64,000 bases of DNA from Schmidtea polychroa (lineage: Eukaryota): assembly GCA_044892525.1 (NCBI GenBank), contig CM097887.1, positions 20,522,001 through 20,586,000 on the forward strand, read 5' to 3'. The position numbers and the translations under genes were made by a program. The notes under the pieces are model-generated. The model had not been told where the DNA came from. It did no database searches and saw nothing but the letters and a program-made list of their open reading frames with translations. Positions 27-53,035 of the stretch are shown here, piece after piece (the first letter of the stretch is position 1; each line of letters opens with the position of its first letter).

Positions 27-745
27 CCGTGTTTTCCTTATTTGACGCCCCGGGCTTGTATTGTAAATTTTCATAAAAACTATTAAAATTGAGGTAGGGC
101 CTATAAAAAGAAAAGTTGAATATATGTCTATGAATCCAAACCTATATTATAAAGTAAAATAAAGAAACCAAACCAAAATCCAATTAAATACTTTATTCAT
201 GTCTCTCATCATCACTGAATATTACTAGATCTTCTGGGACATTTATTTCGTTCGGCAATACTGGCATCATCGATAATGACTGAATGATCATTGGACCAAA
301 CCTTTCATGTTTATAGATATGGCTATTTTCGAAACTGCTGGAAGGATTTAAATACCCGGCTATTAAAGCATTACTAATTATCTGAGTCGTGATTTTATCC
401 CATGATTTTTTAACCCAACAAGCAACTTCCTCGATCGCGGGCTTTTTAAAATTCCCTCTAATATTCCGTTCATTTCTTTGTTCAATATATTCGTTGATTT
501 CATTTTTTAGTTAATCTTTAAATGGTTTGTTCACATATATATACCAAAGATTGTAGATAGCTAGTAGTTCCAGAAGGGATCATATTATTTGATGAATTTT
601 GTAGGTATTCAGATATTCCTTCATTTTAATTGCTCTATGCCTGAGTCAACTAATTAGATGACGAGACATTTGGCTATGTTTTTTAATGGGATAATAAACA
701 CTATTAAAGCACTCAAATTATTGCTCTAATAGTGCTGCTTCCGAG
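27..745 (-). mobile_element. pogo-family (DDE_1) transposase remnant with one terminus
   Basis: Minus-strand translation gives MIPSGTTSYLQ..VNKPFKD and GNFKKPAIEEVACWVKKSWDKIT, typical of the pogo DDE_1 C-terminus, with stops and frameshifts. TA-CCGTGTTTTCC at 25-37 resembles a pogo TIR with TA target. Confidence 0.75.
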
Positions 746-820
746 AGATCCGCGCTAACCTTTCTTATCCAAGTTCTTTTCTTCAAAATATTCTTTATGG
801 TAATCTTCCTTCTGTGGACT

Positions 821-2714
821 TCACTTCTCTCTCTTCCACAAGTAGATTCTGGTCCCAAAATATGTGTAGAACATCTTTGCAGTCCAACTCAATACTTTAA
901 CAGACATTATTTTGCCATCCGCTTTACTTATTCCCATGCCTTTCAGCCTCTCCCATGATCCTTTGTACATATTTCCTCGCCAGTTAAAGGTGATCAAGCC
1001 AAACTCCACCTATGTTGCACCTCTCGCCTTGCACCACTCTTGAACCTCCTCCACGTTGTACTTTACACATTTGTTCTCATGCCTTTCCTGGTGATTCGCA
1101 TGGTCTATTACAATTTGAGTGTCGAGGACAATCGCTTTCGTCCCTCGAACACATACCAGACTTTCAGGTTGCCCATCGCATCTTTTGTCACACATCATTT
1201 CATTTCCGACCTTTCTACCTCCCCGCCCTGTCCTTGTTTTTGTTTGGAACAGGTTTGACGCTGCAGATAAATATCTTACCACCTAGAAGCCTCGTCCCAT
1301 TCTTAATCCAGTTATGAATAAAGGGAACTTCATTCGATCCGTTCAGGTCATAACCATCTTTACTTTCGTACAGCCAATGCTTCATCGCTTTGTAGTAGTC
1401 GTTCTTGGTTTTCTTTTTTACTCCATTAACTTTTATCGGTTTCCGGCTTTTTTCAATCTTTAGATTGCGGGGTGCTGCAGAAGATTAACAACACTCTAAT
1501 CTCCCGAATCTACCATGCTCTCGAGTCATTCGACGATCCCTTATTGGATTTCTTCTCTAATCGATGGTATTCCCAGACATCCGTCACCACACTTACTATT
1601 TATGAACGCTGCCGTAGTGTCATTTGGCAGCTTCAACCATTCCCGTACTAACCGCCTTGTCCTCTTATCCAGTTCCTGCAATTCCCCTAACCTCGACTCC
1701 CCCAATATAGTGCGATGCATGATACTAGGGATCAAGAAACTACGAAGTATCTCCAGGCGCTGTTGATGCTTTAGAGGCGCATTGGTAATTTCAAGCAACT
1801 TATCAACATAGGAAGTACCAATATTCGCTTTAACCTTCCCATGTGAGTTAAATTGCACACCAAGGTGTTTATAAGTTGAATCGGGGTCGGAGCTCATATG
1901 AAGGACGTTCCCATCATTGGCAGTCAGTACATCTAACGAACCACTTCTTATGGCCATCTCTTTGTGCCGTTATTGATGCACACTTTGCTGGATTTGGATC
2001 CAGCCCGTTCTTTTTTAGCTCTGCTAGGACTACATTCAGTAATAACTGTAACCCTTCTTTACTTTCTGTACATAAGACGATATCATCCGAGTAAGCCAGA
2101 AGAGGTGCTTTCTTACTTCCGAGTCGGTAACCCATACCAGTTTTCTCCACTGTACCAATCGCTTGCTCAACAATATTATTAAATAGGATCGGTGAGATTG
2201 ATCACCATGTTTTACTCCGCGGTTCATCATTGCGGTTACTGTCCCAATCTTCGTAGACGTGATGTAATCGACAAGAACCTTCGGGTCTCTCAGAATCTTT
2301 GCTCCTCTAATTATCGAATCATAGTTCACAGAGTCAAATGCTTTCCTCATGTCGATAAACGCCAATGATATAGGGCGTTTTTAGCTCCTCGCATCGTACA
2401 ACAAAGCCTCTAGGAGGCAAATGTTTTCCAGCGTTCCGTCACATTTCTTGAACCCTTTCTGAGCATTTGAGCCTGGGGCCCACATCGCGATCCGACTCGC
2501 CAAAATCTTGTGAAAACCAAGTGTCAACACAGAGCTAATGGTAATCGGCCCAAAAACTCCCCTTCCCTGGCATCCTTAATTTTAGGAATTAAAGTCCGGA
2601 ATGTAGCCAGATTTCAGCATGAGATTGAACAACTTGCATATCACTCGCGCCGGAGTTTTCCTTACTTGAGCAACACTTAAGCCGTCCGGTCCTTTTGCCG
2701 AATCCAGCTGATCT
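821..2714 (-). mobile_element. 5'-truncated, degenerate R2-clade non-LTR retrotransposon (RT, CCHC remnant, REL endonuclease)
   Basis: Motifs in order: DSAKGPDGL..KLFNLML, RPITISS, QKGF, FIDMRKAFDSV, GVKHGD, LAYSDDIVL, YKHLGV, WLKLPNDT..GCLGIP, C..RC..PESL, VLDTQIV..H..K..KY, FGLITFNWRG. Spread over several broken ORFs. Confidence 0.9.
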
Positions 2715-2795
2715 GTACTGTTTACCGATAAAATATGGTATTTCCCCACCAGTTTGACTGTTACTATACAATGACAATATATCTGGATTAATCAT
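2715..2795 (-). pseudogene. N-terminus of a Maverick/Polinton core protein (PW/pVII-like), truncated by the R2 element
   Basis: MINPDILSLYSNSQTGGEIPYFIGKQY resembles the Y..Q.GG..P.F.G..Y motif. Its ATG overlaps the stop of the upstream penton fragment (GATGATTAA). Confidence 0.6.
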
Positions 2796-2928
2796 CTAAT
2801 TTACGGAAATGTAATGTCAAATGAGTTTTTGAATCTTTAGGAAATTTAATGAGATTTTCACTATCGCCACGAATATTAATTTCTGTATTGTTTATACATG
2901 TTCTTGCTACTGGTAAATACATGGGATC
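2788..2928 (-). pseudogene. C-terminus of Maverick/Polinton minor capsid protein (penton)
   Basis: Manual translation DPMYLPVARTCINNTEINIRGDSENLIKFPKDSKTHLTLHFRKLDD* matches the YLPV...I.I.I.D.....F......LHFR ending of Polinton pentons. Confidence 0.75.
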
Positions 2929-3208
2929 CTAAATTTCTTACTAACCATTACCTAACAATATGTGTTATTGTATATGTAATTGTATATAATTGTATATTGT
3001 ATATGATTGTATATGTAAATATATGTTGTAATACTAGTATATGAATTTTATTGGTTGTTGTACATGACTATGTGTTTCTTGTGTGTTTAAATATTGGTAT
3101 AAATATAAATACATTATTTATTTATTTCATTATAAATGTTATCTCAATCAATTGAAAGTAAGTTACATTTTTAATTTTAAATTTATTTTAATTTTATTTT
3201 TAGAAATA

Positions 3209-3448
3209 ATGTATCAAGCTCTTGTTAATAAGATGTTACCTATAAGAACTTTGTGACTTGGTGTTCTGTGCACCAGAAACAAGAAATCTGGAGGCTACTG
3301 GAATCAATTTAATTCAAACTACAAGAAAAATAGAAAAAAATGGATTAAAGATGAGGCAATATGCAATTCACATTATATGTGCTGTGGAAATTGGAGGATC
3401 GCCAGAAATAAGCTTTCACTAGATTTTTGTGATAATAAATTATTTTAA
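3209..3448 (+). pseudogene. Small intronless ORF with one internal TGA, probably a Maverick accessory gene
   Basis: 80 codons (MYQALVNKMLPIRTL*LGVLC..GGYWNQFN..ICNSHYMCCGNW) with a single internal stop. Preceded by ATTGGTTG and TATAAAT motifs and adjacent to the capsid remnants. Confidence 0.4.
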
Positions 3449-3609
3449 ATTATTGTTTTTAACTTTTTATTTATGTAATTTTAGTTAAAATTTTATTTTG
3501 TTTATGTTTATTTCAATGAACTTTTTAATTTATGTAAATTTGATTGGTTGCACATGTGCATGATTTAGTATAAATAAAAGTTTTTTATAATGAATGTGTA
3601 CAATTATAA

Positions 3610-3966
3610 ATGTATCTAACAAAAGGAGAAAAAGTATTCAATGGTATTGAAACAGTGAAACCTACTCGAACAAAGAAAGATTTCAAGCCTGTACGAGTGT
3701 TCCATGACTATAAGATGTATTTCTTGGTGAATTGTGAGTACAAGTTATCGAAACCTGTTAGATTGACAAAAACTCAATATTCAAATTTAAACGGAAATAT
3801 ATCAAAAGAGGATGTTAAATCAATCAATAAAGTTTTACAACAGATCAATAAAAAATTGAGTTGTACTGAAAACATATTCATCAATTATCGGCATACAAGA
3901 TTTCATAATGCTTTTGATGAAATAGTTTATAGAAACAGAGAATTGGTATATCAATATCATAATTAA
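3610..3966 (+). CDS. Hypothetical intronless 118-aa protein, probably a Maverick accessory gene
   Basis: Long ORF for this composition. Preceded by the same ATTGGTTG and TATAAAT motifs as the 3209 ORF; start context TAAATG. No family recognised. Confidence 0.45.
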   Translation: MYLTKGEKVFNGIETVKPTRTKKDFKPVRVFHDYKMYFLVNCEYKLSKPVRLTKTQYSNLNGNISKEDVKSINKVLQQINKKLSCTENIFINYRHTRFHNAFDEIVYRNRELVYQYHN

Positions 3967-4224
3967 AGGATATAAAGTATCCTCAAATGAAGTTATGACA
4001 CCAATATAGAGAATTGATCAAGCGAGAATTTCTCTTGGATTTTAATGATCGAGATTTTATTTAAAATAAATTTTTGTATTTTGAAAACTGTCCTTATTAT
4101 TTAATTAAATTAATTTAAAAATTATAGCTCTGGTTTGAGAATAAATCTGATTGCTTCAAAAGTAATTTTATAAGTAATCGTGCTTTGATTGATATAAATT
4201 ATTATTATAATATTATTATTTTAT

Positions 4225-4306
4225 GGGACTGGTGGCTAAGTGGTGAATTTACTTTTCGGTTTTGACGTTATGTATGGGGTTCAAATCCAAGTATTGTCGA
4301 CTTTTT
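4225..4306 (+). repeat. tRNA-derived SINE-like head (Pol III A and B boxes); partial copies at about 4426 and 5237
   Basis: A box TGGCTAAGTGG at 4233-4243, B box GGTTCAAATCC at 4278-4288, followed by a T6 run. The other copies share the A box and 3' flank but lack the B box. No clean cloverleaf. Confidence 0.55.
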
Positions 4307-5439
4307 TCAAAAATTAATTTTTTACATGTTATTTTTAATGGTGCATTGATTGATATAGATTAATATTATTTTTTATTATTATTAAAAATATTAATATTAT
4401 TATTTTATTATTAATATTATTTTGTGGGACTGATGGCTAAGTGGTGATTTTTGATTTTGACGTTAGGTATGGGCGACTTTTTTCAAAAATTAATTTTTAC
4501 ATGCTATTTTTAATATAGATCGAATCAGCATACCTTACTTGCTATAAATTGAAATTTTCGTAAAAATCGGTTAATGATTTTTATTTAAAGGTTCATAGTA
4601 TTTTCTCACCTACTGATATAAAATGCAGTAAACAATCATTAAATAATAATTGATATTAAGTTTTAGACCATTTGGGCATTTATTTTATTATACTTTGTGA
4701 TTTTATTAATTATTTTTTGTACCCTTCAAATAACAATAAACATTTAATCTATTGACCATTTTTTATATAAGGTATGCAAACGTTATGAAATGTATAAAAA
4801 AGGGAAATGATCCATTTATAATGTTTGTGTATGACGCAATGAGCATACGAGTGGTCAGTTAGTAACAATGTATGTATTACGTAAAGGTCACGCGTGAAGT
4901 CAGATAACAACAACACGTGTATTGCGTAATCGGTCATTATTAATACCCCCTTGTATCTGACGGGCTCACATCCTACTTTTAGCAATAGGAATTATTATTT
5001 TTCATTATTATTAGCAAAATTTACATCTAAATTATCTTTAAAATTTATTTCATTATAAAATTTAATTTAAATTTGACTTCTCAAAAGCCGGCTATTATTC
5101 AAACTTTTTGATATTAAATTTAAATTCTTACTTTAATATTCACGAGTCTAGAATCTAGACCATTACTTAATTTTAAAAATTTAGCACTTTAATTTTAAAT
5201 TTTAGACATTTAATTTACCTATTATTTTTATTATTTGGGACTGGCGGTTAAGTGGTGATAATAATAATAACTTTTTTATTTTTTCAAAAAAATAATTTTT
5301 AACAGTTAATTTTTAATAAAGATCGAATAGGCATACTTTAATTGCTCTGAATTGAAATTTTCATAACTAAATTTTCCAATTCTTTTAACAAAATTTCATG
5401 CACGGTAACTGTTTTCATAGAAAAAGATGAAAGGTCTAC

Positions 5440-6299: not shown

Positions 6300-7807
6300 C
6301 GTCATCAGTTCTGCAGATAGCTAAAAAGAGTAAATACTGCGACGAATAATTTTGCTATTTTGCTTGTTATTGCGAGGTATTTAAAAGACAATGAAGCCGA
6401 TGAAAACCTTTTACTTTGTCATGCTCTGTAAGAACACATAACAGGTGAAAATATATTCAAAGCTACCGATTTATTATTTCCAAGAAAAAGTCATAAATTG
6501 GTCTAATTGCTTTGGGCTTTGTACCGATGGTGGCAAGTCTGCGCGGTCGAGTCTTGAAGATAGCTCCCAAAATAAGTTGGAGTCACTGTTGCATCGACAG
6601 GCAAAGTTTTGCATTTAAGCACCTTCCAGTGCAAATGAAGCTTGTTCTTGACGAAGCTACGAAAGTGGTTAATTTTATAAAGTCAAGTTCAACCAACTCG
6701 AAAATTTTTAAAGCTCTTTGTGAAGATTTTGATAGTGATCATTCTACTCTGCTATATCATACAGAAGGTGGCTTAGACATGACGTACAGGCTTTCTTCGA
6801 AGAACATCCTTTTCAACTTGCTTCCAAGTTCCACGACTGTAATTGGCTTCAGACGCTTGCGTATTTATCAGACATTTTCCTACGTACAAACAATCTAAAT
6901 TTAGCACTTCAAAATAACTCCATATCGATATTTGATGTCTCGGATAAAATTAATCAATGATTAAAAAATTAATTTTTGGAGAACATGTATTGAAAACGGT
7001 CAATCGGAGGTATTTGAAACTTTGCACAATTTCCTATCAAAGGATAAACTTTGCCTCTCCAGAGAATTGAGCAACAACATATTTGAACATTTAAAAGAGC
7101 TAAAATCAAATTTCGAGAAGTATTTTCACAAACCTGATGTAGAAAACAATTGGATTTCAAATCCTTTCAATGACTAATACTTTCGAATAGCTAAATTATG
7201 AATCACTGAAAAAGAGAACTTAATTGAACTTTCATATGACTCTACATTGAAAGTCGAATTTAAAGGAAAATGTCTTATTAACTTTTGGTCACATATCAGC
7301 TCCGAATATGAATTGCTTTCTGCCAAAGCGCTTAACGTTTTGTTACCATTTACAAGTACAGTGCTGGTGTAAAGAGCATTCTCTTCATATCTCTTTATTA
7401 AAAACAGATACGGTAATAAGCTGAATGCAGCTCCAGATTTAAGATTATACCTTGCATCAATTGAACCTGACTTCAAAAAACTATGCGCCTCCAAGCAAGC
7501 TCAAGGATCTCACTAAATGTAATAAGTTAAGTTAAAAGTAATGAAAAATTTCAATGTAAAAAATATAATAGTTTATATTCATATCGTTTTTTTGATTAAA
7601 ATATATGTAACTATAATAAATGTTTCATCAATACACATTCTGAGCATACTCCTTGACACATTATTGTTATTTATTTAGTGTTCGAACAAATTTAAAATAA
7701 TAACAAATACGCGAGTATTAATATATTTTTTTTCTAATATAAGGGGTACAATTTAGGATAATGAATTTCCAAGGGGTACTCAAGTCAAAAAAGTTTGAGA
7801 AGCGCTG
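6300..7807 (+). mobile_element. 5'-truncated hAT Buster/Charlie (ZBED5/8-like) element
   Basis: GLCTDGG, WSHC..RQ, VVNFIK, LLYHTE and a C-terminus ending KQAQGSH* (stop 7514-7516). Right TIR GTTTGAGAAGCGCTG ends at 7807, followed by CTTTAACA (NNNTANNN target). Confidence 0.9.
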
Positions 7808-8258
7808 CTTTAACAGACAAACATTTTTGGTTTTCTATAAAATTCGTCTAAGATTAGAATTTTTTAGGGTTCTGTTGTAGAATCTTTTTTTGCTTTGGGG
7901 CTAATAAATGAAAAGCTGTCATGCATTTATAATTGTTCCATAAGACTTCGTAAGCGGATTCTGTTTCAAAAACTTCCAAGATGAACACAGCTATTAATTT
8001 CTTAATTAAAACAAAAATTATTTCTTTATCTGACTACACTGAGTTATAAAAACATTAAAAACCAAATTAAAAGTCAAAAGAAAAGTTAGATTGGAATTAA
8101 ACAAAAAAGTGGATCAAGACTTTTGAATTCGTGGAAGTGGTAATGTAGTAGAATACAATTCTGACACAATTAACCTTTACAATGACTCGCCATTAAATGA
8201 GATCAACCTAACGCGCAAACATTTTCTGAGCTTAGATACAACTCAACATCGTATAAAC

Positions 8259-10230
8259 CAGGGGTGTCCACCTTTTAGCTTCCCTGGGTCACATTAGACA
8301 CAAGATGAGTTGTTTTGGGCCTCATAAAAAAATTCACTTACACTAATAATGGCTGATGAGAAAATAAAACTTATGTTATATAGTTAACATATTTATGTAT
8401 TTTATATATTTATTAATTTCTTATTCCAAAAGTAAAAGACAAAACCAAATTCAGAAATGAGTGAGAAACTTGACTTTGTTTTTGATATACTAATGCGTCA
8501 ATATTTGCTTCGATGGAAGTAGTTGCGATTCTTAGTGATTGCTCAAGGTGCTCATCAGATAGTTTCGTTCTATTTTTATTCTTTGTGTGCTTCATCCGTG
8601 AAAATAACTGCTCACAAATGTTGGTGCTTCCAAATAGCGATGACATAAATAGGACATGGTTGTGAAGCGAGAGATATTTTTCTTTGAGAAGATATATCTT
8701 ATAGAAGTAAAGAGTAAAGAGACTTGATGAAATTTTTCTTTAAATTTAATGTCAGATTGTAACTATGCATTCTATTTGAAAATTGGCTGGTAATAAGTTA
8801 ATTTCGACTGAAAAAGGAATCGAAAATATACCAAAAAGTAGATCATTTTTCCGGAAATCTTGGAATCTATTCTCAAACTCCTGTATCAAATCTGAAAGCA
8901 AAGTTACATATTTTTCGTTGTTCAGAGGACTGTGTTTCGCCAACTTGTTGAAATGCATAAAATTGTTTGGCTTAATTTGTGATTGCCATAATTTCAGTTT
9001 CATTTCAAATGCTGATATGGTTTGAAACGTATTGGTATTTACCTTGAAGACGCGAATTTAACTCATTTAAATGAGTGGTCAAGTCTACTAAAAATGCAAA
9101 ATCGGTGAGCCAGTGTTCATTGTCAAGTTCGGGCACACATTTCGTTTTCGATTCCATAAATGACTTGATTTCATTTCGCAAATCATAAAATCTTTTCAAC
9201 ATGTTTCCCCGGCTTAACCATCTAACTTCCGAAAAGTAAATGATATCCCCATATTCCGCATCCATAATTTTAAGAAATTCCTGGAATTGACGATGATTCA
9301 ATCCCTTGGCTCTTATAAATTTTACAGCGTTGATGACAATCGGCATCACGTTATTCATCTTTTTGCGCATAAATTTTCTTGATGTACTATGCAGTGATAT
9401 TTCATAAAACGTAAATTTTGGGCGGCAAATGCATCGTCTTCTACTAATTTTACAAGTCCTTCTCGTTTACCTACCATTGCTGGAGCACCATCAGTTACTA
9501 TTCCAGACATATTCTCAACGGGCAAAGAAAATCGTTTTAGTGTAGTTTTCACCGCTTCATACAAATCTCTTGATTTAGTTGTGACTTTTAGTGGCACTAA
9601 AGAAGCCATTTCTTCAGTGTCGTTATATTCTTCATCAATACATCTAATAAAAATCGCCAATTGAGCTGTATCAGTAGAATCAGTACTTTCGTCTATCGCC
9701 ATAACATAAAATTTAAAATTAGCTGATCTACTCTCCAAACCTACTTCGACAAATTTTCCGATTTCTTCAATTCGCCTGGCTATTGTCTGGTGAGACAAAC
9801 TGATTTTAGAAAATTCTTTTTTATCAGGGCAAATTATATCTGCAACGCTTTCCATGTATAGCTTAAGTTTTGTGCTATCAAATTTGAAACCACATAACTA
9901 GCTTTTACGGTAGAATTCTTTTGAGTTGCAATTTTCTTTAAAAACTTTGTTGAGATGAGACTTTTTGTCAATTCTGCTATTTTGTCTTTACGACACATTC
10001 CTTGATATGAATTAAAGTTACTAGCATGTTTTTGCGTATAATGCCTCTACAAATTGTAGTCTTTGAAAACAGGTACAAATTCCCGACAGATTAAGCACAT
10101 TGCCTTAGTATTTGTCTCAACAAAAAGTAGTCATCTGACCACTTTTCGTTGAAAAATCTTCTTCTTCCATAATTTTTCTCTTTTTTTTTCGTTCGGTTTC
10201 TTTTTGTGGCGCTGTGGAAGCCATGATGAA
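8259..10230 (-). mobile_element. Defective hAT SPIN/GTF2IRD2-like transposon
   Basis: AIDESTD, VTDGAPAM, YHCIVHQENLCA, SEVRWLSRG, FGSTNICEQLFS over 4-5 broken ORFs. Terminus CAGGGGTGTCCA at 8259 preceded by GTATAAAC. The other TIR was not found. Confidence 0.92.
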
Positions 10231-21416: not shown

Positions 21417-22870
21417 TTTTTATTCTTTGTATCCCAAAACCAGTAGCAGTTATTCCAATTCCATTGAATCCGGTTGTGTTTCTATTTACAGCTATTCTTG
21501 ATGCGTTTCCATTATTTATTTTAGTTCAAATTTTATCTCCGGTCATATTGCTTATAAAATCTAAAAGATATTAATAAATTTAATCAACAAAAATTATGGA
21601 TCATCCTTTTAATTCAACCCCCAGGGGTTAAATTAAAAGGATGAAAAATAGTAAAATTTTATTAATAAGATATAAAATCAATTAATTATCAAATAATTTA
21701 ATAAATATTAATATTTTAAAATTTAATTTTATTTTGCAATATAAATTAACAAAGATACATTTAAATATTATATTTAAAAACAAAGTTTAATTAAATTTAA
21801 GACTGCATTAAAAAATCTGCTCTGTTATTAAAATGATCACAAAATTCAATAAGAAAATCCTATCTTTTTTCTGTTAAAACACCTTTCCTTCGTTTTATTT
21901 CTAACTTTAATTCATTGTGGAATGATTTGATTGCCTGAGTGTTAATTCATTCCTTTTGTTTATAAAGTCATACTTGTGGCAAACTGTACCATGATAAAAA
22001 CTATTCATCAAGATTGAAGTACGCTTAATGTTCATCTGTCCATATTACGATATTATTGGTCACTTGATTAAATATGATAGGCACTATTGTTCTTTCTTTC
22101 TTGTCTGGTATTGTAACTGCAAATGCTCTTTCAATATTATTGTATACCTCTACAATATACAATGAATCACTTCTGTTACTTGGAGCTCGGCCACGATGAC
22201 TTTTGACCTTATAATTAAGCATGGTCTCATCGATTTTTTCAGGCCCCCCTAGTTTAGAATTGCTAAAATAAACTGTAGGTATTTTGCTTTTTAATCTCTT
22301 TATTACCTTTACAATTGTTGAATCAAAGGTATCTAATGCCAATTTGATACTAAAAATAGACTGCCTTGTTGAATATTTTATAATTATTCTTAAAATCAAA
22401 GTCTTCTGAACACTTCATCCATCAAAAAAAAGAATTTTTCCTAGCTTATTCATAGACTTTGTACCTTTGACAAGCTGGTGTCATACACCTCCAAGCAATT
22501 TTGTCTATAGATCTTTTATGATCTACCAATTTCATAAAGGCATTACATGTGCTGCACCCATGTTCATTCTTCAAAAACGAGTTTGTCATAAAAAATAAAG
22601 CAAGATTTTTTTCGTCCAGTATTATGCATATTCTTTCAAATTCATCAGGAGTCATTTTGAATTAATATTGAAAAATTGATTATTATTTTCGGGGGTTAAA
22701 TTAAAAGGTTGATCCAAAATTATAATAATAGTAATGTACCAATGTTAACTTTATTATTGTTGTTGTTGTTCATTACATTTCCTATAAAATGTAATAATAA
22801 TAAATAAACGACTAAATAAGTCTTACCATTCTTTGTTTCTTTGAACAATGTTTGCCATTTTGTTATAATT
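21417..22870 (-). pseudogene. Small spliced (pseudo)gene whose intron hosts the Merlin element
   Basis: Exons ending at 22827, 22740-22781 and 21417-21560 join phase 1 to phase 1 (KWQTLFKETKN-GNVMNNNNNNKVNI-DFISNMTGDKI*TKINNGNASRIAV). Introns are 45 nt and, after removing Merlin plus one TSD, 53 nt. One internal TGA. Confidence 0.45.
21598..22715 (-). mobile_element. Complete-ended Merlin (IS1016/ISXO2-like) transposon with a broken transposase
   Basis: 25-bp TIRs (GGATCATCCTTTTAATTCAACCCCC / GGGGGTTAAATTAAAAGGTTGATCC) and 8-bp TSD AAAATTAT. Zn-ribbon CxxC..WRC..C and ISXO2 motifs IDET, HRGR, IWTDEH, VCHKY, NTQA. Confidence 0.93.
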
Positions 22871-22994
22871 AAAATTTTGGTTATGAAGTAAAAGTGATGA
22901 AAAATCCTAAAACATTGCTTTGTATACCGTAGATTGAGTAATATTTATTCATCCAATAGAAATTGATAGTAACTGTAATACTTGTACACACATA

Positions 22995-23491: not shown

Positions 23492-23684
23492 TAATCTTAG
23501 GGGCTATGTCTATATGGGTATACAATGAATGTATGTAGAAAGCAATGCGCGTCTTATAAGTGCTGCGTTCAAACTGAATTCCACGTGGAAAATTTGTTGA
23601 TTAAAAGCTATACAGCGCATGGTTGTTGTAAGAGCGAGACAAGTGCCGTAAAACGAGGCATGTATGTATTTGGAAATAATAAAA

Positions 23685-23870
23685 AAATCTAATTTAATGT
23701 ACAGTAATGTATCATTCAAATCGAGATATTCAGTATGAGAACCTGTTATCTTGAATTCGATGTCGTTTTTATTATCAATTGAATTAAATGGAAATACGTC
23801 TCCAAATGTCGCATATTATATTACGTAGTCGGTCGATCAAAAATACATAATTCAGTTTTTCCACAAATAA
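23685..23870 (-). pseudogene. N-terminus of Maverick/Polinton major capsid protein
   Basis: ICGKTELCIFDRPTT* and, after a frameshift, DVFPFNSIDNKNDIEFKITGSHTEYLDLNDTLLYIKL match the C.KSELD.F..P.TQ and IEF.I.G...EY.DL..T.LY.K motifs of Polinton MCPs. Confidence 0.78.
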
Positions 23871-24041
23871 TTTTTCGAATATAGTTCCACGTCCTGTCAA
23901 TCCTCGGAGTCCACACATCTATCTACTTAAAAGGGGAATGAGGTGTCAAAAATAACCTAAAACTATTTCTGGCACTAATAGCAATATTAATGACAATTAA
24001 TAACGAATACCAAAAAAGAGTAACATCATAATAAATAATAT

Positions 24042-31120: not shown

Positions 31121-34060
31121 TTAATAGAAATTGTAAAATTCTAATTCATCTTTAATTTCCATGCGTTCAAAATCAGGAATTTGAATTTCTGACGAACTTT
31201 CCGTTTTAGTATCCTTTGCTAATATTATTCCGCCGTTTTCCAATCGCTTCACGAGGGAATATCTTTGCGAATCAATTTCATTTAGTTCTATTCCTTTTAA
31301 TAGGGCTGGCACAATTCTTGCTGGATTCTGCAATATTGTACAACGTTCAATATTTCCTTTCTTGTAAATATTTGACTTTGGTATTTCTGTTGACTGGGCT
31401 TTAATAATATTTTCCGTCTCATTTCTCTTGCCTCTCACTTTGCTTGACACACTCAAAATAGCTTTTGATTTAGATACGTTTACTGTCTCTACTTCCGTAA
31501 TGAGGGGATCAGAGTGCTTGAATTTGTCTGGTGATAAATTGGATTTGATTTCAACATTGAGCATTCTCAGATCTTCATTGAGAACAATTACACAGGTCGG
31601 TGTAAATGCCAGGCTGATGAAATTAGCTAGTGGATGCCAGAACCAATAACTCTGAAACACGAGTAGACCAACAACAGCTGCCATATTTGTATTGCCACTT
31701 GTGGTTTCTAATGATATTTTGACATTTCTTCCGCCTGCATTCATGATTCCCATTGCAATTATTGCTCCAAATTTAGTTATTATTTCTTCTCGACTGTTTG
31801 AAATTTTTGCCATGGTTTTATTTCGGAATTCAACTGATTTCGGATTGGTACTTTCTGTTTGTTGCATCATCAACATTGACATTGCAATATAGGCTCCTTG
31901 TTTCACAAATGCTTCGGAATCATCTAAAAGTGGCTCAATGATATCTATTGCTTCCTTCAATGGTGATCCAGAACAGCCAATACCAATGGCCATCGCAACG
32001 CCATATCTGATATGAGGATTATGTGAATCACTCATGAGTGCCAATGTTGACACAATATGTTTTGGATTTCTGAATTGAACAAATCCAATAGCTATCACGG
32101 CCCATCGACGGACATCGTCACTTTTATCACAAGATGCCGCTTTTAATAGTTTCCTAATGGCCTTAATATTTCCTGTTCCACAATATGCCATTGCAATGGT
32201 AGCCATTCCTGCCCATCTGAGAATAGGATTTTGTTCATATATTAATTCTTCAATTACTTCATCCGCATATTCCTCTTTACCATACATTAATAAAGCAATT
32301 CCCAGTGCTATTCCTCGGGATATTTTCTCATGAGTGGTTTCGTTGGCATAATTTATCATTTCCTCAGCAATCCCATAAGAACCGCCACCAAGCATCACTA
32401 GACCAATTGAGATTGCTGCTGCTTCACCGGTTACCGCATTATCATTAAATAATGATGATTTTAGCTGATCATAAACATGTTCTTTTCCTGTTCCCATAGC
32501 AGCTAGACCAAGTCCTAAACAGCCTCCATGTATTAATGCTTCATAATTTGGCCCGGCTAATTTAGTCAATAAATAATCTGTCACTCCCTCATTACAACGG
32601 TTTGCATGAATTAATCCCATTGCATAGAGTGCCCCTCCTTCACTATACATATTCTTTTCAATGCTGTTTTCATTTTCTTTTGGTAAAAACTTTGATAAAA
32701 CATTTCCTGTATTGATCTCATCACCTTTATGGATCACTCCTAATGAAGAAATTCCCGTGAATTTAGCCCAATGGGCAGCTTTATTGGTCCACTCTTTATT
32801 GTTATAGAGGAATGTTTTATCTGTTGTTCCGTAATTCATGAATCCGTTTGCTAAAGCGACTGCGTTGTCAGTGATAGAATTCTTTGAACAATCTTTCAAC
32901 TTATTCAGGATGCTCGAATCAACATGTGCTTGTCGAATCAGGAAATCTGAATGTAACTCGACAACTTTTGTTTTGGACAATATGGATACCAAATTATTAT
33001 GTTTCCTTTCAATATTGAAATATTCTTCAATTTTTTCTATTTCTTCGAAGTAATCATCATCATCATCAATATCAGTTCCAATTATTTCTTTCTCTAACTT
33101 GATCTTCTTAGCAGGAACTTCGGAATAATCATCACCATCAATATAAGTTCCAACTATTTCTTTCTCTAACATGATATTTTTGACAGGAACTTCAGAATAA
33201 TCATCATCATCATTATCATTTGATCTTTTGTAATACTCAGCGTCTCGGATATATGCTGAGAAATTTAATGAATTTATAATCTTAGTCAGAAATTCTTGAT
33301 TAGAATCTTCAGCGAAATCGAACGCCAATTGATATGCCACAAGCTCCATTTCATCGGTTCCTAAAATCATATTTTCTAAAGTCTCTTCAACTCGATTTGA
33401 ATCATTCAAAAGAATCAAGATCCGATAAATGTTTGTATAATCCATCATTTGCTTTCTCGTGCTTATTTCCAATAATTTTATTAATATTTCATCTCGATAT
33501 TTTTTTACTTTGCCAGTTTTCAAAGCGATTTCCAATGCATATTTAAACGCTTCTTCTACCCCACTTGCGTTCTCAATGGCTTTATCTAAAATATCTAATC
33601 TGCAACATTCCAATGCTATACCTATTGTTTTGACATGGTGCCCACTTTCGAAACTTTTTTCAAAAATTTTATTGATAAAACTCTCCAGTTTACCCAAATG
33701 AAAATATTCTATCGTTATTTCTTCTCTTTCGGATTTCTTTAATAAAATATATTTCTGAATGGCTTCCTTATTAATTATATTGATATATTCAATTTCTGAA
33801 TCAGCATAAAATTCTTCTTCGGAAATAAGAGCATAATTTAAGGATTCTTGAAGCTCTCCAAGATGGTAATAAATTTTTGAAACTAAAAGAGCTGCTAACT
33901 TTTGATGTGGAAAGTTTTTATTTTCTGTCAAAGATTCCAATTTTGGGATTTCTTCGGCTAATTCAGGCCAGAACTCACAGACGGTTTCTATTAGATTTGT
34001 TAGAACACAACTTGGAATTTCATTCAAATTATTATTGTACATTGATAATAGCAAATTCAT
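31121..34060 (-). CDS. PSMD1: 26S proteasome non-ATPase regulatory subunit 1 (RPN2), single exon, 979 aa
   Basis: EFWPE, AALLVSKIYYHLG, WAKFTGISSLGVIHKG, YSEGGALYAMGLIHAN, PC repeats, SDDVRR, HNPHIRYG, KFGAIIAMGIMNAGGRNV, FWHPL, NPARIVP. Confidence 0.97.
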   Translation of the reverse strand: MNLLLSMYNNNLNEIPSCVLTNLIETVCEFWPELAEEIPKLESLTENKNFPHQKLAALLVSKIYYHLGELQESLNYALISEEEFYADSEIEYINIINKEAIQKYILLKKSEREEITIEYFHLGKLESFINKIFEKSFESGHHVKTIGIALECCRLDILDKAIENASGVEEAFKYALEIALKTGKVKKYRDEILIKLLEISTRKQMMDYTNIYRILILLNDSNRVEETLENMILGTDEMELVAYQLAFDFAEDSNQEFLTKIINSLNFSAYIRDAEYYKRSNDNDDDDYSEVPVKNIMLEKEIVGTYIDGDDYSEVPAKKIKLEKEIIGTDIDDDDDYFEEIEKIEEYFNIERKHNNLVSILSKTKVVELHSDFLIRQAHVDSSILNKLKDCSKNSITDNAVALANGFMNYGTTDKTFLYNNKEWTNKAAHWAKFTGISSLGVIHKGDEINTGNVLSKFLPKENENSIEKNMYSEGGALYAMGLIHANRCNEGVTDYLLTKLAGPNYEALIHGGCLGLGLAAMGTGKEHVYDQLKSSLFNDNAVTGEAAAISIGLVMLGGGSYGIAEEMINYANETTHEKISRGIALGIALLMYGKEEYADEVIEELIYEQNPILRWAGMATIAMAYCGTGNIKAIRKLLKAASCDKSDDVRRWAVIAIGFVQFRNPKHIVSTLALMSDSHNPHIRYGVAMAIGIGCSGSPLKEAIDIIEPLLDDSEAFVKQGAYIAMSMLMMQQTESTNPKSVEFRNKTMAKISNSREEIITKFGAIIAMGIMNAGGRNVKISLETTSGNTNMAAVVGLLVFQSYWFWHPLANFISLAFTPTCVIVLNEDLRMLNVEIKSNLSPDKFKHSDPLITEVETVNVSKSKAILSVSSKVRGKRNETENIIKAQSTEIPKSNIYKKGNIERCTILQNPARIVPALLKGIELNEIDSQRYSLVKRLENGGIILAKDTKTESSSEIQIPDFERMEIKDELEFYNFY
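33064..33207 (-). repeat. 72-bp x2 in-frame tandem repeat inside RPN2
   Basis: Units start at 33064 and 33136 and encode DDYSEVP.K.I.LEKEI.GT.ID twice. Confidence 0.95.
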
Positions 34061-34899
34061 TTTTACAAGATATAATATAATAATATATTATTACTATTTA
34101 AACGAATTATTTAATATTTATAAAAATAATCAAACATTTATTTTATATCTATTTTTAAAGATTTTTAAATATTTTATATATAATTTATTATTTTTAAAGT
34201 GTATTTTTTTAAAAAATTATTATTAATTTAAATATTTAAAATTGTTAAACAACTAAATCATTTCAATATCAGAACGAGGATATTTTTATATAATTAATGA
34301 ATAAATCTTAATTGTTTTAGGAAATCACTTTGTAATTTTTCTATGGTGACTTGATAAAATTTTATTTATTTTTAATATTTTGATTTTAATTCATTTTCGA
34401 GTGAAAATGTAAAATTTAAAAATAATATATAAATTTAATTTTAAAATAAATTTAATTACAAGTTATTTAAAAAAATATTAAAAATTTTTGAATAAAAATT
34501 TTTGGTTTTAATATATCAAAATAATACTATTGGCTTAATAAATAAAAATGATATATTCATATTTGGAATGAAATTTAAATATATAGTAATTGTTTCGGCA
34601 GACTTGAATTATAAAACATTTATTTATAAATTAAATTATATTATTTCTTTGACAAACATTTTTTAACTAGTTATTTGTAATTATAAATAAATTTTCCAAA
34701 AATGTTTATTATTAATTTAAAATTTGCGAGTGATTCTCGGCATTCAGTGCATTGTTGGATACGGTTAATCATTTGTCACAATGAAAATTATTTTGCCTTC
34801 ATCTAAAAAATAAATCATTATTAATTAAAATAATAATATTAATATATAAATCGATTCCTGAATTAATAAATAGATTAATGACGGAGAAACATTTTCCCC

Positions 34900-35244: not shown

Positions 35245-38200
35245 CAGGGATGGCGAACCTTTTTTTGACTGCGTGCCAATAAATATTATTTTTATAAAAT
35301 GAAAATACATGCGTGCCAATACAAATTATTTTTATTAAATGAAAATACATGCTTTTAAAAATTATATATAGATTCATTTCTATAATATGCTGACATGTTT
35401 TTTAATGGGATTTTTGTTGCTGAATATTTCTCGATAATGCATCAATATCCGGATCATAGTTTGACAATTTTAATGAAATACAAGCCTCCCCACATTCATC
35501 GGTAAGTCTGTTTCGTACATCAGATTTTATATTATTCATAATCGAAAATAGACTTTCACAGCTATACGTTGATGAAAATATTGTTAGAATAGCTAAAGAC
35601 AATTTCTTCATCGCATTAAATGTTTCTGGGAGCGAACACCATGTCTTCAACAACATATTATTCATGTTTTCGTATTCTTCTTCATTTAATCTTTTTTTTT
35701 CATTATTTTCTATTTCTTGCCTTAACTCTATAAATTTCAGCTTCCAAATAGAACTTGATTGAAACTCTGCCAACTGCATTTCTAAATTCTCCAACTGTAA
35801 CTAGTCTAATTGATCAATTTTAGCAGTTTCCATATCAAACTTGTCTGGATATTTAATAAAGTTAATTAATGGTTGAAATTTTTTGAAATCTTGAAATCTA
35901 TTAGCAAAATTGTCTTGTATGTCACTTATAACTTGGCTATAAAAATTTATATTAATTTCATAGACTCCATGAATAGAAAATTTTTGAAGGTGATCTTTCA
36001 ACAAAGGAAAATACTTAAAATTATTGTTGTCAATATCGCGTTTAAATATTACTAATTTGGACTCAAAACCTTCAATAATATCGAACATTACATCAATTGA
36101 TTTTCCGGGACCTTGCAATTTAATATTTAATTCATTTAAATGGTTGGAAATATCCGTTAAAAACATTAATTTGGTGATCCAGTTATTATCAAAAAGTTCA
36201 GGAAATTCGGTTTTTTTATCATTAAGAAACATGATAATTTGAACCTACCTCTTGTAGAAGCAACTGAAATTGCCGCTTATTCAAAGCTCGAGCTGCTATA
36301 AAATTTATTATTTTGGAAACAATACTTAAAATATCATCAAATGCTGCCAATCCAGACTTCGCACATAGAACTTCTTGATGAATTATACAATGAAAATTAA
36401 TAATTGGATGCCCAACGTGTTCTTGAAAAAGAGATACAAAACCAGCTTGCCGTCCTATCATTGAGGGAGCTCCATCAGTTGTAATTGACACTATTGTTGA
36501 TGTATCTATCTCAGCTATTTGAAACGTTTTTATAACTGCATCACTAATATCTTTCCCAGTTGTTTTTGCTGATAAGGAAACTAGTGAAAGCAATTCCTCA
36601 ACTATTTTTTCTCCTTTAGCATAACGAGCAATTATGGACAAGCGAGCTAAAGATGTTACGTCGGTACTTTCATCAAGACATATAGAAAATAGCTTTGCTG
36701 AACGTATATCATTTATTTTTTTAATATTAATATTTTTATGCATTTTTAATATCCTGTCTTTAACAGTATTTCGACTTATACTTAATTCTTCAATGCGCTT
36801 AAGTATCTGCTCTTTATTTTGAAAATCTTCAAATAAATGTGGTGCACATTTAATGAAAGCTTCTTTAATATAATCTCCATCGCTAAATGGTTTGCTATGA
36901 GTAGCAATAGTCTTGGAAACCTCAAAACTAGCAGCAACTAAATAATTTGTATGTTTCAAAAATGTAGTGAATGAGTTTGATTGGAATTTTTTATTTTTAA
37001 CTTCACGTGCAATATATTCTTTTTGTTCTGAATCACTTTTAGATAAAAGAAATGAATGAGTAGTTTCATAATGACGTTTTACTGAGGATGTTCTGCACAC
37101 TACTGTTTTTCCACACAACGCACACAGGGCATTGTTATTGCTTCATTTTCATTCCATATTTATCAGTCCACCAATCTTGAAATGGTCTGTTAGAGCTGGC
37201 CTCTGTTTTCCTTTTCTTATTTTCTGACATTCTAAAGTTGAAACATATTATTTATTTATCATTAAAATTGTTAATGAATTACCTTTTGAAATCAATTATA
37301 ATTGTCTTCTAAAAATATAAATAGATTTTTTTTTATTAGCAAAAAATAATACTAAAATAAGAAAACACAATTTTCAATCGCACTTACAAAGTTTTTAACT
37401 GAACTGAATTAGAATTAGTGAATTTCAATTTTGGCGAGAATGCAAATATTCATATATATATAGTTGTTATATTATTCATAATCGAAAATAGACTTTCACA
37501 GCTATACGTTGATGAAAATATTGTTAGAATAGCTAAAGACAATTTCTTCATCGCATTAAATGTTTCTGGTTAAAAACTTTGTAAGTGCGATTGAAAATTG
37601 TGTTTTCTTATTTTAGTATTATTTTTAGTATTATTATAGTTGTTATTATAGTTAATGAATTATTGTTATTATTGTTAATTATGTTATTTTGGAGGAGAAT
37701 TTGAAGAGCCCGAAAGAGTCACCGTTAAAACTTGTAGCGGGACAATCGGGGTGCGTGTTATGTTCAAAATATAAGATTTACAAACAATATAAAGTTATAG
37801 ATATAATGCAAAACAATAATAAATGTTACAACTTTTAAAATTTATTACAACAAAGAAATAAAACCTCGTATCTATCTTGGATGTTCGTGAAATATACTTC
37901 CAAATATTTTCTTTGATTTTCTTTCTGTACAATAAACTCTACTTAAAAGTCTTTGGTAAAGAAATGAATTTTCAGTTCTCAAAACTAATACAAATTATCG
38001 TTTCCATATTCTATTCGTCATTGCTTTTTTTAATTTTTCAATTTTCTTTTAACTATAGCGATAATTTACTATAGTAAATTATCGCTATATAGTTTATTTT
38101 TAAAAATCTGGATTTCCCAGATGGTAATATTTTATATTTTAGTATACACAATTCCTAATATATGTATGTATATATTTGAAAATCCAAAGCATACTATATT

Positions 38201-50685: not shown

Positions 50686-51606
50686 CTACATGTATATTAC
50701 ATAACCCTTATCTATGAGCCTTTGGCATGTTTGGCAATTTTTTATATTACTTATTTCAAAGCAAGCATTGCAAATAATGACATGATGGCAAGGTTCATAA
50801 AGTATATTAACCTGATTTTGCTTACAAGATTTGCATATTAAGTACGACGACCTCGCTTTATTTAATATTACTGGTATCTGTTTCTCCATTTCCTCAATAT
50901 GCCTTTCTATGTTGATCCATATTTCCTGAGATGGTTTCTTAATTAATCTGTATTTTAACAATTTCCCATAGCACTCCTTGATGGCTTCCTCACTGAAATC
51001 GCCATTCGATTGAATAAACCAGCTAGATAGTTTCAACAGATATTCATTATAACCGAATTTCTCATGTAAATTACCAACGAACTGGTGCTTGAACGATTTT
51101 GAAATCTCTAATAATCTCATTGGTTTATATGTTTGATAATTTTTAATCAAGCTCGCGATCTGATCGAATCGACAGCAACTAAAACATAATCCAATATAGT
51201 CACGCATGAAAGAAGAAATCTCCATCTGATCACTGTTGCAAATTCGACATTTTAAATTACATTCACGTTTTTCTTCTACAATTTTTGATAATTTATTTTG
51301 AATAAAATCGATATTTGATATCCAATTGTTTATAACAATTCGATAATATTTTTCTAATCTCAATTCCATCAACTCCCAAAAATATTCCAAGAAATTTTTT
51401 TGAGAAAATTCCATAAGATTAATATGCAAAACGAAGCTGCACAATTTTAATAGTGGCTTTGAGTATCCGAATTTTTTGTGGAAATATTTGATCATGTAAT
51501 GCCTAAATGAATCTAAAATTTTATCAAGTTCATTATAATCCATTAAATTCTGATTTGAATTTAAAAAAACTTCGATTTTTTTGAAAGTATTATTGATTAA
51601 AATCAT
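50686..51606 (-). CDS. RING-finger (IAP/MIB-type C3HC4) protein with an internal tandem duplication, 306 aa, single exon
   Basis: C-terminal CKSC...LYEPCHHVIICNAC......CQTCQ..I. Two ~125-aa repeats share SF.H....H.KFGY...LLKL.S. The first RING is degenerate. Confidence 0.85.
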   Translation of the reverse strand: MILINNTFKKIEVFLNSNQNLMDYNELDKILDSFRHYMIKYFHKKFGYSKPLLKLCSFVLHINLMEFSQKNFLEYFWELMELRLEKYYRIVINNWISNIDFIQNKLSKIVEEKRECNLKCRICNSDQMEISSFMRDYIGLCFSCCRFDQIASLIKNYQTYKPMRLLEISKSFKHQFVGNLHEKFGYNEYLLKLSSWFIQSNGDFSEEAIKECYGKLLKYRLIKKPSQEIWINIERHIEEMEKQIPVILNKARSSYLICKSCKQNQVNILYEPCHHVIICNACFEISNIKNCQTCQRLIDKGYVIYM

Positions 51607-53035
51607 AGTTTGTTAAAAAATATATATAAATTTTTAATAAATATAATTTGTACCTTTAACATATATATATATATCAAAATATTTCAATTAAAATAGTAAC
51701 AGGATGTATTGTTTGGGACGAATCAGAAATCGTGATTGATATAATAAAACAAATTTATTAATTAATTTTCATTTTTTATTTGAGATTATGATAATTATTA
51801 TTATTATCGTAATTATAATTGTTATTAATTTAATGCATATAATTCATATAAAATTTTGAAATTTAATTAAAATATTGTGTTGGACAAAAACCGATTCTAG
51901 GGTATGGTAATAAGTAATTTTCGAGTACATCAATTAAGCATGAATAATTATGAGAAACTTCAATCAAATAATATACTAGGTTAGTTGCCAAAACTGCTTC
52001 CTTTGCACGTTATTAGGTAGTAATATGCACTCCAGACTTAGGTAACCCCCATAATATTTTTTAAAATTTTTTATATATTGATTACGTAATATGTTAAAAT
52101 TTAAAAAGAATTGAATATCGTTGAAATTGAAACTAATAACTTTTTACTGAAACTTTATAAATGCAAATATTTTTTGCATTTATAAAATGAATTTTGCATT
52201 TTTTAGCAAAATACTTGCCCAGTAATACTAATATCATTATTTTTCACAATGAAAATGAAACCCATTACATTCGAGAAATAATTGTATGCCGATGACAATA
52301 GTAACATTAATTTTTTGAAAAATTGAAGAAAAGTTCCCCTTTTTATTATTTTTTTCACACATTGGGCAGTTTGACTATAGGTTTCAAGTTCACAATGATT
52401 TTTTGTATGACGTTATAGACTGCTTTTAAGCACATTCCAGTCAGCTGTTTCCACCTGTTTATAAACAAGGCATTTACAGATGGTTTTTAATTTATTTTTC
52501 TTCGTTTTGATTATTTTGGATAAACTATCTCGTTTCCAGTGCAAAATTGCAAATCGTATAGAGAGGGAAAAATTATAAGACATTTATACAAATTCAAGCA
52601 ACAGTGTAAAGTCAAACAGGTGTATTTGGATGAAGAATCTACCCTTATCTTCTAAACAGAAAAGGAATACAAGGATTCCATCCGTTGAAAAGATAATCAA
52701 TCTCAGACTGGGTTGGAAACTTCACTTTTCTGTTCAATAGAGAGAGACGGCGACTGGATCGATTCAAAATTTTAATCTTTTAAATCATGTTTGAGAAAAA
52801 TCAATTTTTTTTACCTTTTGAAGGTTTTAGCTCATAATGGTTGAACCCGGAAAGGTCTAAGTGGTACCATAATACAGAGCACGCACGACTCTATCTACAA
52901 ACAATTGATTGTTAAGAACTCTTTGACTTTAAGGAAATTCAAAAATTTTAAAAACTTTATAGCATGTGTCTGTGTGAGTCTATGAAATACTTATTTATAA
53001 AGGGGTCTGATATGACAACTTTTTTTGAAAATGAG

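Follow-up and report, generated by a model that had tools for sequence, protein, structure and literature searches.

A decayed right end of an integrated Maverick/Polinton in Schmidtea polychroa, with a pseudogene of a likely T7-type single-stranded-DNA-binding protein

Which element left the cluster of short reading frames found near the start of a 64,000-nucleotide stretch of Schmidtea polychroa DNA (assembly GCA_044892525.1, contig CM097887.1, forward-strand positions 20,522,001 to 20,586,000; hereafter the window), and what would its genes have done? An earlier note, made from the letters alone, read the cluster as the compact virion module of a captured Maverick/Polinton: a penton, the overlapping start of a core protein and two intronless orphan genes. 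We find that positions 2708-4977 are the dead right-end remnant of one copy of a Maverick/Polinton family and that, instead of a compact captured module, they hold an end that has been deleted, frameshifted and truncated at a retroelement. We put at roughly 0.8 the probability of our main reading, namely that we are dealing with the right end, now decayed, of an integrated element whose last plus-strand gene (ORF-B) likely encoded a T7-type SSB, a protein that binds single-stranded DNA and would coat the strand displaced by the polymerase. The locus itself is ordinary transposon debris, one copy among many; the family of origin matters more than the locus.

The features of the remnant and of its left neighbor are collected in Table 1. 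The two minus-strand peptides read as the earlier note had them: the one at 2788-2928 ends in LHFRKLDD and a stop, and 2715-2795 encodes the quoted 27 residues. Their genes do overlap, the 8 nt in common being 2788-2795; between the stop and the ATG that were said to overlap, no base is shared. On the plus strand, ATTGGTTG stands at 3050 and 3543, each time followed by TATAAAT (3098 and 3569), as described. The two open frames announced behind these motifs are in unequal condition: 3610-3966 is open for 118 codons, while 3209-3448 meets a stop at 3254-3256 after 15 codons. Nor is 3610-3966 an entire gene, since it is a frameshifted form of a 146-codon gene (146 aa in unbroken copies) and lacks the last beta-hairpin because of a frame break near 3923. 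The frame of the other gene, ORF-A, is broken near 3235 and 3312.

Table 1. Features of the Maverick/Polinton remnant and the adjoining retroelement (window coordinates)
Feature	Position	Strand	Basis
Degraded 5'-truncated non-LTR retroelement (reverse transcriptase), outside the Maverick	645..2709	-	RVT_1 E 4.9e-11 for 1917-2201
PW, first 27 codons (putative core protein; 131 codons in longer copies)	2708..2795	-	position and homologues
Penton (minor capsid), last 45 codons (345 in a longer copy)	2788..2927	-	tblastn to residues 297-345
TATAAACAA box, 101 nt ahead of the start of PW	2888..2896	-	motif
Deletion junction, 3.56-3.60 kb	2926..2927	.	6/6 longer stretches
TBP-like gene, final 9 codons with the stop (longer copies have 156 codons)	2926..2955	+	
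Putative ORF-A promoter: inverted CCAAT box with TATA box	3050..3104	+	
ORF-A pseudogene; probable exon 3136-3157, intron 3158-3203, stop at 3254	3136..3448	+	
Inverted CCAAT box and TATA box before ORF-B, putative promoter	3543..3575	+	
ORF-B pseudogene, predicted T7 gp2.5/Enc34-type OB-fold SSB	3610..4045	+	
Right terminal inverted repeat, containing internal repeats, and the end of the element (..CTACT, 4977)	4038..4977	.	

A DNA search of the element's own genome (781 Mb, 1012 contigs) gives 47 matches, and at several places the first 213 query bases and the remainder lie about 3.6-3.8 kb apart. We compared six such longer stretches, two of which are a near-identical inverted pair. Relative to all six, the window copy lacks the segment that holds most of the penton gene, the integrase, the ORF at the PZ position, the ATPase and most of the TBP-like gene. 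The deletion, with 2 nt of microhomology at its junction, fuses the end of the penton frame to the end of the TBP-like frame, and it is the reason why the penton now adjoins the plus-strand genes. Across 2708-2927 the DNA is 98% identical to another copy, and 2926-2966 is a 100% match to the end of the TBP-like gene in other copies. The TATAAACAA box may be a coding coincidence because it lies inside penton codons.

On the left, PW is cut at 2708-2709, its junction with the non-LTR retroelement. This retroelement has 85 matches in the genome, other copies extend past the junction, and site-specific targeting of PW finds no support in the 3 of them inspected, each of which continues as retroelement beyond that point. 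Also missing from the window copy are pPolB and the adenain-like protease. Neither a left end nor a matching left half is found in the 20 kb upstream or in the rest of the window. One candidate for the missing half was a pPolB remnant located 0.2-1.5 kb upstream of the window, which we rejected because it is only about 50% identical to the family polymerase. With 0 unbroken genes, the window copy can form no particle and cannot replicate. Its history was presumably that of a normal element, which would have inserted, then suffered the deletion and the frameshifts, and lost its left part in association with the retroelement.

The gene content of the family can be read from the longer stretches. 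On one strand they carry pPolB, a nuclease-like ORF, adenain, a 406-aa gene, a 131-aa gene beginning MINPD, a 345-aa gene ending LHFRKLDD, an integrase, a 171-aa ORF and an A32-type ATPase; on the opposite strand they carry a TBP-like gene, ORF-A and ORF-B, followed by the terminal repeat. In Pfam these genes match rve (E 6.5e-10, with a weak chromodomain), Pox_A32 (3e-5), Peptidase_C5 (9e-7), DNA_pol_B_2 (E 3.6e-6, with pPolB in pieces) and TBP (E 1e-17). One copy has identical matching ends and a 6-bp target-site duplication, of which the window copy keeps the right end only; the two copies whose ORFs were fully listed are defective too. The assignment to the Maverick/Polinton class is borne out by these core genes and terminal inverted repeats (TIRs), and the genes from which the earlier note hoped to rebuild a full element (pPolB, rve integrase, A32 ATPase and adenain) are all recovered in the longer copies. 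The note was also right that the lineage hosted such an element, but not merely once: related families are present with scores of near-identical copies.

For the 345-aa gene we modeled the structure (pLDDT 82), and the model matches the mavirus penton (6g41) at Z 13.1, with an rmsd of 5.8 over 236 aligned residues and a Foldseek E of 1.7e-9, as well as the pentons of Sputnik, PBCV-1 and adenovirus. Capsid proteins from double-jelly-roll viruses fill the first 7 VIA rows (Z 13.1-7.5). On this model the proposal holds: the minus-strand peptide forms the end of a penton, predicted to be a single jelly-roll minor capsid protein. The mavirus and Sputnik virophage pentons and the adenovirus penton base likewise combine a single jelly-roll with an inserted domain, at 10-14% identity to the family penton, of which the window retains no more than the final 45 codons. 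Between the penton and the capsid-sized gene stands the MINPD gene, and we agree in calling it PW by position because the order INT-mCP-PW-MCP-PRO matches that of vertebrate Mavericks (Barreat and Katzourakis 2021, PMC8097293). It has homologues in other families and on metagenome contigs, Gly-Gly motifs and a basic C-terminus. PW is likened to the adenovirus pVII core protein; the term pVII has 0 matches in the papers searched. The capsid-sized gene itself (406 aa) is conserved and at the expected MCP place, with no Pfam or PDB sequence match. A Pfam search of the window peptides returned nothing for the penton, PW, ORF-A and ORF-B fragments, and PDB sequence searches with ORF-A, ORF-B, the penton and the capsid-sized gene returned nothing at E<=0.1.

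Now we consider the plus-strand genes, which had been described as orphan accessory genes of the element. They are accessory genes and they travel with Maverick core genes; ORF-B is no orphan, having 81 homologues and a predicted SSB-type fold. A protein search of the genome with ORF-B scores at least 150 places. Its window DNA is 90-94% identical to 8 other copies, the best of which are up to 99% identical to one another. Beyond this family, one family at 55% identity carries ORF-B in both inverted ends, further families have homologues at 45-50%, and two families have homologues at about 30% with an apparent short phase-0 intron, beside protease and polymerase genes and away from TBP; the intron pattern is found in 22 of 25 loci of one family. 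Among 30 ORF-B loci kept from the first genome search, a core gene lies within 1.5 kb in 23 and a core or TBP gene in 29, and in the second search all 25 loci have a core gene within that distance. Between families, pN is 0.25-0.35 against a pS of 0.72-0.77.

A word-seeded search with ORF-B alone is null (0 of 29 candidates), no Pfam family scores above cut-off, and neither PHROG nor PDB gives a sequence match at E<=0.001; weak Pfam and PHROG rows (mRNA_triPase at 0.016, and others) were discarded as inconsistent across 70 members. A profile of 9 sequences finds the 81 homologues at E<=0.001 in a 50%-clustered protein library. Our alignment of 70 sequences consists of 64 of these library proteins and 6 local ones, fragments and the longest proteins being excluded.

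The model made from these 70 sequences (pLDDT 90.9) is predicted to be an OB-fold. Among 48,161 solved chains, its top four VIA matches are T7-type or viral SSBs or SSB-type proteins: DUF2815 (4klk; Z 7.2, rmsd 2.7, 101 aligned), the Enc34 SSB (5odk; Z 7.1, rmsd 3.3, 103 aligned), ASFV CP312R (8hw5; Z 7.0, rmsd 4.0, 126 aligned) and T7 gp2.5 (1je5; Z 6.3, rmsd 3.5, 106 aligned). The fifth row drops to Z 5.3, baculovirus LEF-3 is eighth, and most of the top 50 are OB-folds. These scores are modest, as a VIA Z below 8 can reflect a common arrangement and OB-folds also bind RNA, dsDNA and proteins. In Foldseek the best PDB row is again the Enc34 SSB (E 0.037, with none at E<=0.001), and in BFVD there are 41 matches at E<=0.001, nearly all of them large-DNA-virus proteins and one a baculovirus DNA-binding protein. 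Among these matches are mimivirus R506 and ranavirus P31K, which we take to be published members of the T7-like SSB family.

The details of the model point in the same direction. A 14-residue helix (67-80) directly follows the strand at 60-64, which we read as the second long strand, and a long helix after strand beta2 is given as a hallmark of T7-type SSBs in PMC5686142. In the last hairpin (n=70), position 123 is aromatic in 86%, position 124 is K or R in 91% and position 135 is aromatic in 81%; between these conserved columns and the DNA-contacting residues of Enc34 (W150, N154, K46 and R112) no residue-level match could be drawn. An acidic C-terminal tail is found in 0 of 70 family members; we therefore describe ORF-B as a protein that would work like a T7-type SSB and do not file it as a strict member. 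Judged on predicted structure, ORF-B is likely a T7-type SSB. In protein-primed replicons the polymerase displaces one strand and a dedicated protein coats it (PMC11886824), and ORF-B could bind single-stranded DNA and coat the strand displaced as the protein-primed polymerase of the element copies its DNA.

A wider view comes from a metagenome scan with the TBP alignment, which yields 57 loci, non-independent in that many share accession series. A core gene is found in 23 of them, and in 15 of the 20 that are at least 3 kb long. Nineteen have a strong ORF-B homologue, in 8 cases beside a core gene, and 4 further loci have, beside TBP, a distant ORF-B relative that does end in an acidic tail (hhalign 74.8%, E 2.6e-5). 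ORF-A is found in 0 of the 57.

Could ORF-B be an OB-fold protein with another job? It might serve the inverted ends as a factor for single-strand annealing or for recombination, or it might work in transcription with the mini-TBP as a cofactor that binds dsDNA or RNA. Tail-less Enc34 SSB binds dsDNA besides ssDNA according to PMC5686142, and ORF-B is itself without an acidic tail; one family has ORF-B in both inverted ends, and ORF-B adjoins TBP in 19 of 57 metagenome loci, though those loci were selected by TBP. We nevertheless consider such a job unlikely, for the four best solved matches are without exception SSBs or proteins of SSB type, and in two other families of the genome the homologue sits beside protease and polymerase genes, away from TBP.

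The persistence of both CCAAT and TATA motifs in the window might further suggest that the host has co-opted the remnant, as a domesticated penton, core or accessory module or as a source of promoters. We give this very little credence: every window gene is truncated or frameshifted, and identities of 90-94% between the window ORF-B and 8 copies that reach up to 99% among the best are what decay would be expected to leave. As for the plus-strand ORFs being chance frames, or ordinary cellular genes next to a Maverick fragment, the lack of a Pfam family at cut-off and the null word search with ORF-B are the sort of result that this would produce. Yet both ORFs lie within TIR-bounded copies, their order is kept in diverged families, pN is well below pS, and ORF-A is close to every TBP locus tested. 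The earlier note had named, among the grounds for abandoning its reading, ORFs that match ordinary cellular genes and never co-occur with Maverick core genes; the ORFs do co-occur with them. Synteny and selection refute the chance or cellular origin, and only single-copy, host-syntenic orthologues would revive it.

Having favored an SSB for ORF-B, we are left with its neighbor. ORF-A encodes a small Cys-rich protein, whose length in other copies is about 90-115 aa. P, E, TGI and CxxxCxxC are invariant in it, the last present in 9 of 9 sequences and twice in 3 of them, and the gene lies within 1.5 kb of 30 of the 30 TBP loci tested. It was described as intronless, which it probably is not: a first exon of 22 nt and, behind it, a GT-AG intron of 46 nt appear to precede the ATG at 3209 in frame. 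The same arrangement (22-nt first exon, phase-1 intron of 46-48 nt, in frame) is seen in the window and 7 other family copies, one with a stop in the exon, and again in a second family (2 copies); in a third family the phase-1 donor comes after 10 nt, and in a fourth there is no intron. From these patterns ORF-A is probably spliced. In pairwise comparisons pN equals pS in 1 of 10. The ORF-A profile has a single database match, nearly identical to a copy in its own genome, and for a homologue in the ESM Atlas the model is poor (pLDDT 0.52) and gives no usable match. We tried ORF-A as an adintovirus Oncoid, as defined in PMC8502044, and rejected this because the LxCxE and CR1 Rb-binding motifs are found in 0 of 9; of the Oncoid traits, ORF-A does have the paired cysteines associated with binding of metal. 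Our best guess, a weak and doubtful one, is a zinc-binding early regulator.

How does this family compare with known systems? Mavericks and their pentons are already known. With animal Mavericks/Polintons (PMC8097293) and adintoviruses (PMC8502044) the family shares pPolB, integrase, ATPase, protease, penton and the order INT-mCP-PW-MCP-PRO, together with TIRs, a 6-bp target-site duplication and accessory genes near the ends. It differs in having the ATPase and the PZ-position gene on the strand of the capsid module, and in its accessory genes, which comprise a mini-TBP together with an SSB-like and a Cys-rich gene. These accessory genes appear to have short introns, whereas none are seen in vertebrate Mavericks (PMC8097293). 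A TBP gene is labelled in the MELD virus figure of Starrett et al. (2021, PMC8502044), and the terms SSB, ssDNA and DBP have 0 matches in part of that supplement. We found no Maverick SSB in the Polinton literature searched; Repbase or subscription papers may contain an earlier SSB or TBP annotation. In our view the family is a Maverick variant that has, besides a likely T7-type SSB, a mini-TBP and a Cys-rich gene.

Among SSBs, ORF-B shares with T7 gp2.5 (1je5), Enc34 ORF6 (5odk) and DUF2815 (4klk) the OB-fold, the helix after strand 2 and the aromatic and basic residues of the hairpin (PMC5686142). It differs from them in its 4-7% identity, its smaller size (core of about 120 aa), a variable N-terminal extension in place of the acidic C-terminal tail (70 of 70) and its setting in a protein-primed system. 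Its best predicted-structure matches are proteins of Nucleocytoviricota and mriyaviruses, for which T7-like SSBs are described (PMC4889955, PMC10962738 and PMC9963768). Such a family is present in four NCLDV families (PMC10962738), and ASFV CP312R is reported to bind ssDNA; these viruses use RNA-primed replication, and no sequence-level link to ORF-B was found. Adenovirus DBP and PRD1 P12, the proteins with the same putative job, have different folds. A 2016 survey (PMC4889955) describes the SSBs of protein-primed viruses as unrelated to typical OB-fold SSBs, a statement partly qualified by the OB-like but distinct open fold of PRD1 P12 (PMC11886824).

The interest of the family lies in this contrast. 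Replication by strand displacement lays bare long single strands, and both adenoviruses and tectiviruses have coating proteins encoded in their own genomes. Adenovirus DBP is the SSB of a protein-primed system. If ORF-B is what it appears to be, a protein-primed replicon would be using the SSB type of RNA-primed viruses, and this protein might, more speculatively, be a Maverick-side relative of the Nucleocytoviricota SSBs and an extra shared gene for the proposed link from polintons to giant viruses. A conserved T7-type SSB in Mavericks would fill the coating-protein gap and be an exception to the pattern stated in PMC4889955.

Finally, the promoters of the family seem to fall into two types. 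Plus-strand ATTGGTTG sites in the 64 kb are only the two at 3050 and 3543, against 63 plus-strand sites for TATAAAT alone; the composite of ATTGGTTG and TATAAAT, a motif chosen post hoc, turns up one or more times in 8 of the 5000 shuffles made of the bases of 2715-4060, as against 2 observed. ORF-A and ORF-B are without TATAAACA and carry ATTGG and TATAAA(A/T), for ORF-B at -67/-41 or -61/-45, a spacing kept in three diverged families of the genome. The CCAAT-TATA composite is found in 0 of 21 metagenome ORF-B homologues, and we therefore regard the CCAAT and TATA promoter as local to families of the S. polychroa genome. In two family copies TATAAACA lies within 200 nt of the ATPase, integrase, PW and capsid-sized genes, mostly at -33 to -66, and, wherever this was checked, also before the PZ-position gene; in a second family it accompanies 4 of those 5 core genes, the integrase being without. 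No TATAAACA box is found within the 200 nt checked of the TBP, pPolB, nuclease-like and penton genes.

We infer from these motifs an early/late split, in which the CCAAT and TATA boxes would let host factors transcribe ORF-A and ORF-B early and the TATAAACA box of most core genes would be read later, possibly with the element's own TBP. More tentatively, and with somewhat less than even odds in our estimation, this may be a widespread Maverick lineage with a compact early end module (an OB-fold SSB of T7/giant-virus type, a mini-TBP and a small zinc protein), in which CCAAT and TATA drive the SSB and zinc genes and TBP then reads TATAAACA on the packaging and capsid genes. A mini-TBP together with two promoter types makes an early/late programme in Mavericks testable.

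As a side observation on transcripts, contigs of two runs presumed to be RNA contain scattered pieces only, one of them with an A-run about 240 nt past the ORF-B stop.

The Maverick/Polinton family whose dead right end lies in the window carries a TBP-like gene, which in a longer copy fetched from the same genome (L028:8598-9065) encodes 156 aa and matches the Pfam TBP profile with an E-value of 1e-17. This gene has matches at 150 or more places in the S. polychroa genome, its tail is still present in the window copy (2926-2955), and the 92 database homologues of its protein are mostly of a similarly small size (140-170 aa). The same longer copy holds, 3' of the protease gene, a 135-aa ORF (L028:2867-3271) that begins like a nuclease and contains Cys/His motifs; it has no Pfam match, and homologues are found in 14 of 57 metagenome loci, which were themselves selected through TBP and are not independent samples.

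The SSB-like gene, which encodes a predicted OB-fold, T7-type ssDNA-binding protein, recurs in other families and in different arrangements. A related family (L113-L114, together with many paired matches) has the gene duplicated, with one in each inverted end, and is present in the S. polychroa genome as many copies with identical scores. Two further families (L120 and L123) have an apparent intron of 40-52 nt at the same codon boundary of the gene, and in both the protease and polymerase genes adjoin it. On four metagenome contigs (L196, L198, L201 and L204) the relatives of the protein are 230-270 aa long with acidic C-terminal tails, and their genes are convergent with the mini-TBP gene.

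Two other observations concern genes associated with these elements. Diverged penton genes stand as a tandem pair both in the L120 family (L120:5455-7486) and on a metagenome contig (L171:5616-7684). Near the TBP and SSB genes of seven metagenome contigs (L158, L159, L163, L176, L187, L195 and L206) there is a conserved 105-aa ORF with a CxCC motif at its start, which the profile of ORF-A, the small Cys-rich accessory gene, does not match.

Elsewhere in the genome, two nested Maverick copies lie inside an inverted duplication of about 28 kb (contig C2 of assembly G000, 164.459-164.487 Mb against 164.500-164.528 Mb, 98.7-99.97% identity), which is either a recent duplication or an assembly artefact.

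Further features in the window and directly upstream of it (L039)
Feature	Position	Strand	Remarks
Second Maverick family, fragments	22852-22971, 23500-23900		includes start of capsid-sized gene; 90% DNA identity
Degraded pPolB, yet another Maverick family	L039:8547-9826		~50% identical to families examined
RPN2/PSMD1-like frame	31124-34087	-	988 codons, uninterrupted; has 72-bp tandem repeat
Frame with C-terminal C3HC4 RING finger	50689-51612	-	308 codons
14-3-3 gene	62050-62882	+	split over two frames
ISXO2/IS1595-like transposase fragment	22028-22414	-	E 1.4e-4, below cut-off
Several hAT-like transposase remnants and second non-LTR reverse transcriptase	6500-10200, 35400-37140, 54600-57370, 59035-60900

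The RPN2/PSMD1-like frame could be a retrocopy or a divergent paralogue, and the ISXO2/IS1595-like fragment we take to be, probably, a Merlin-type element.
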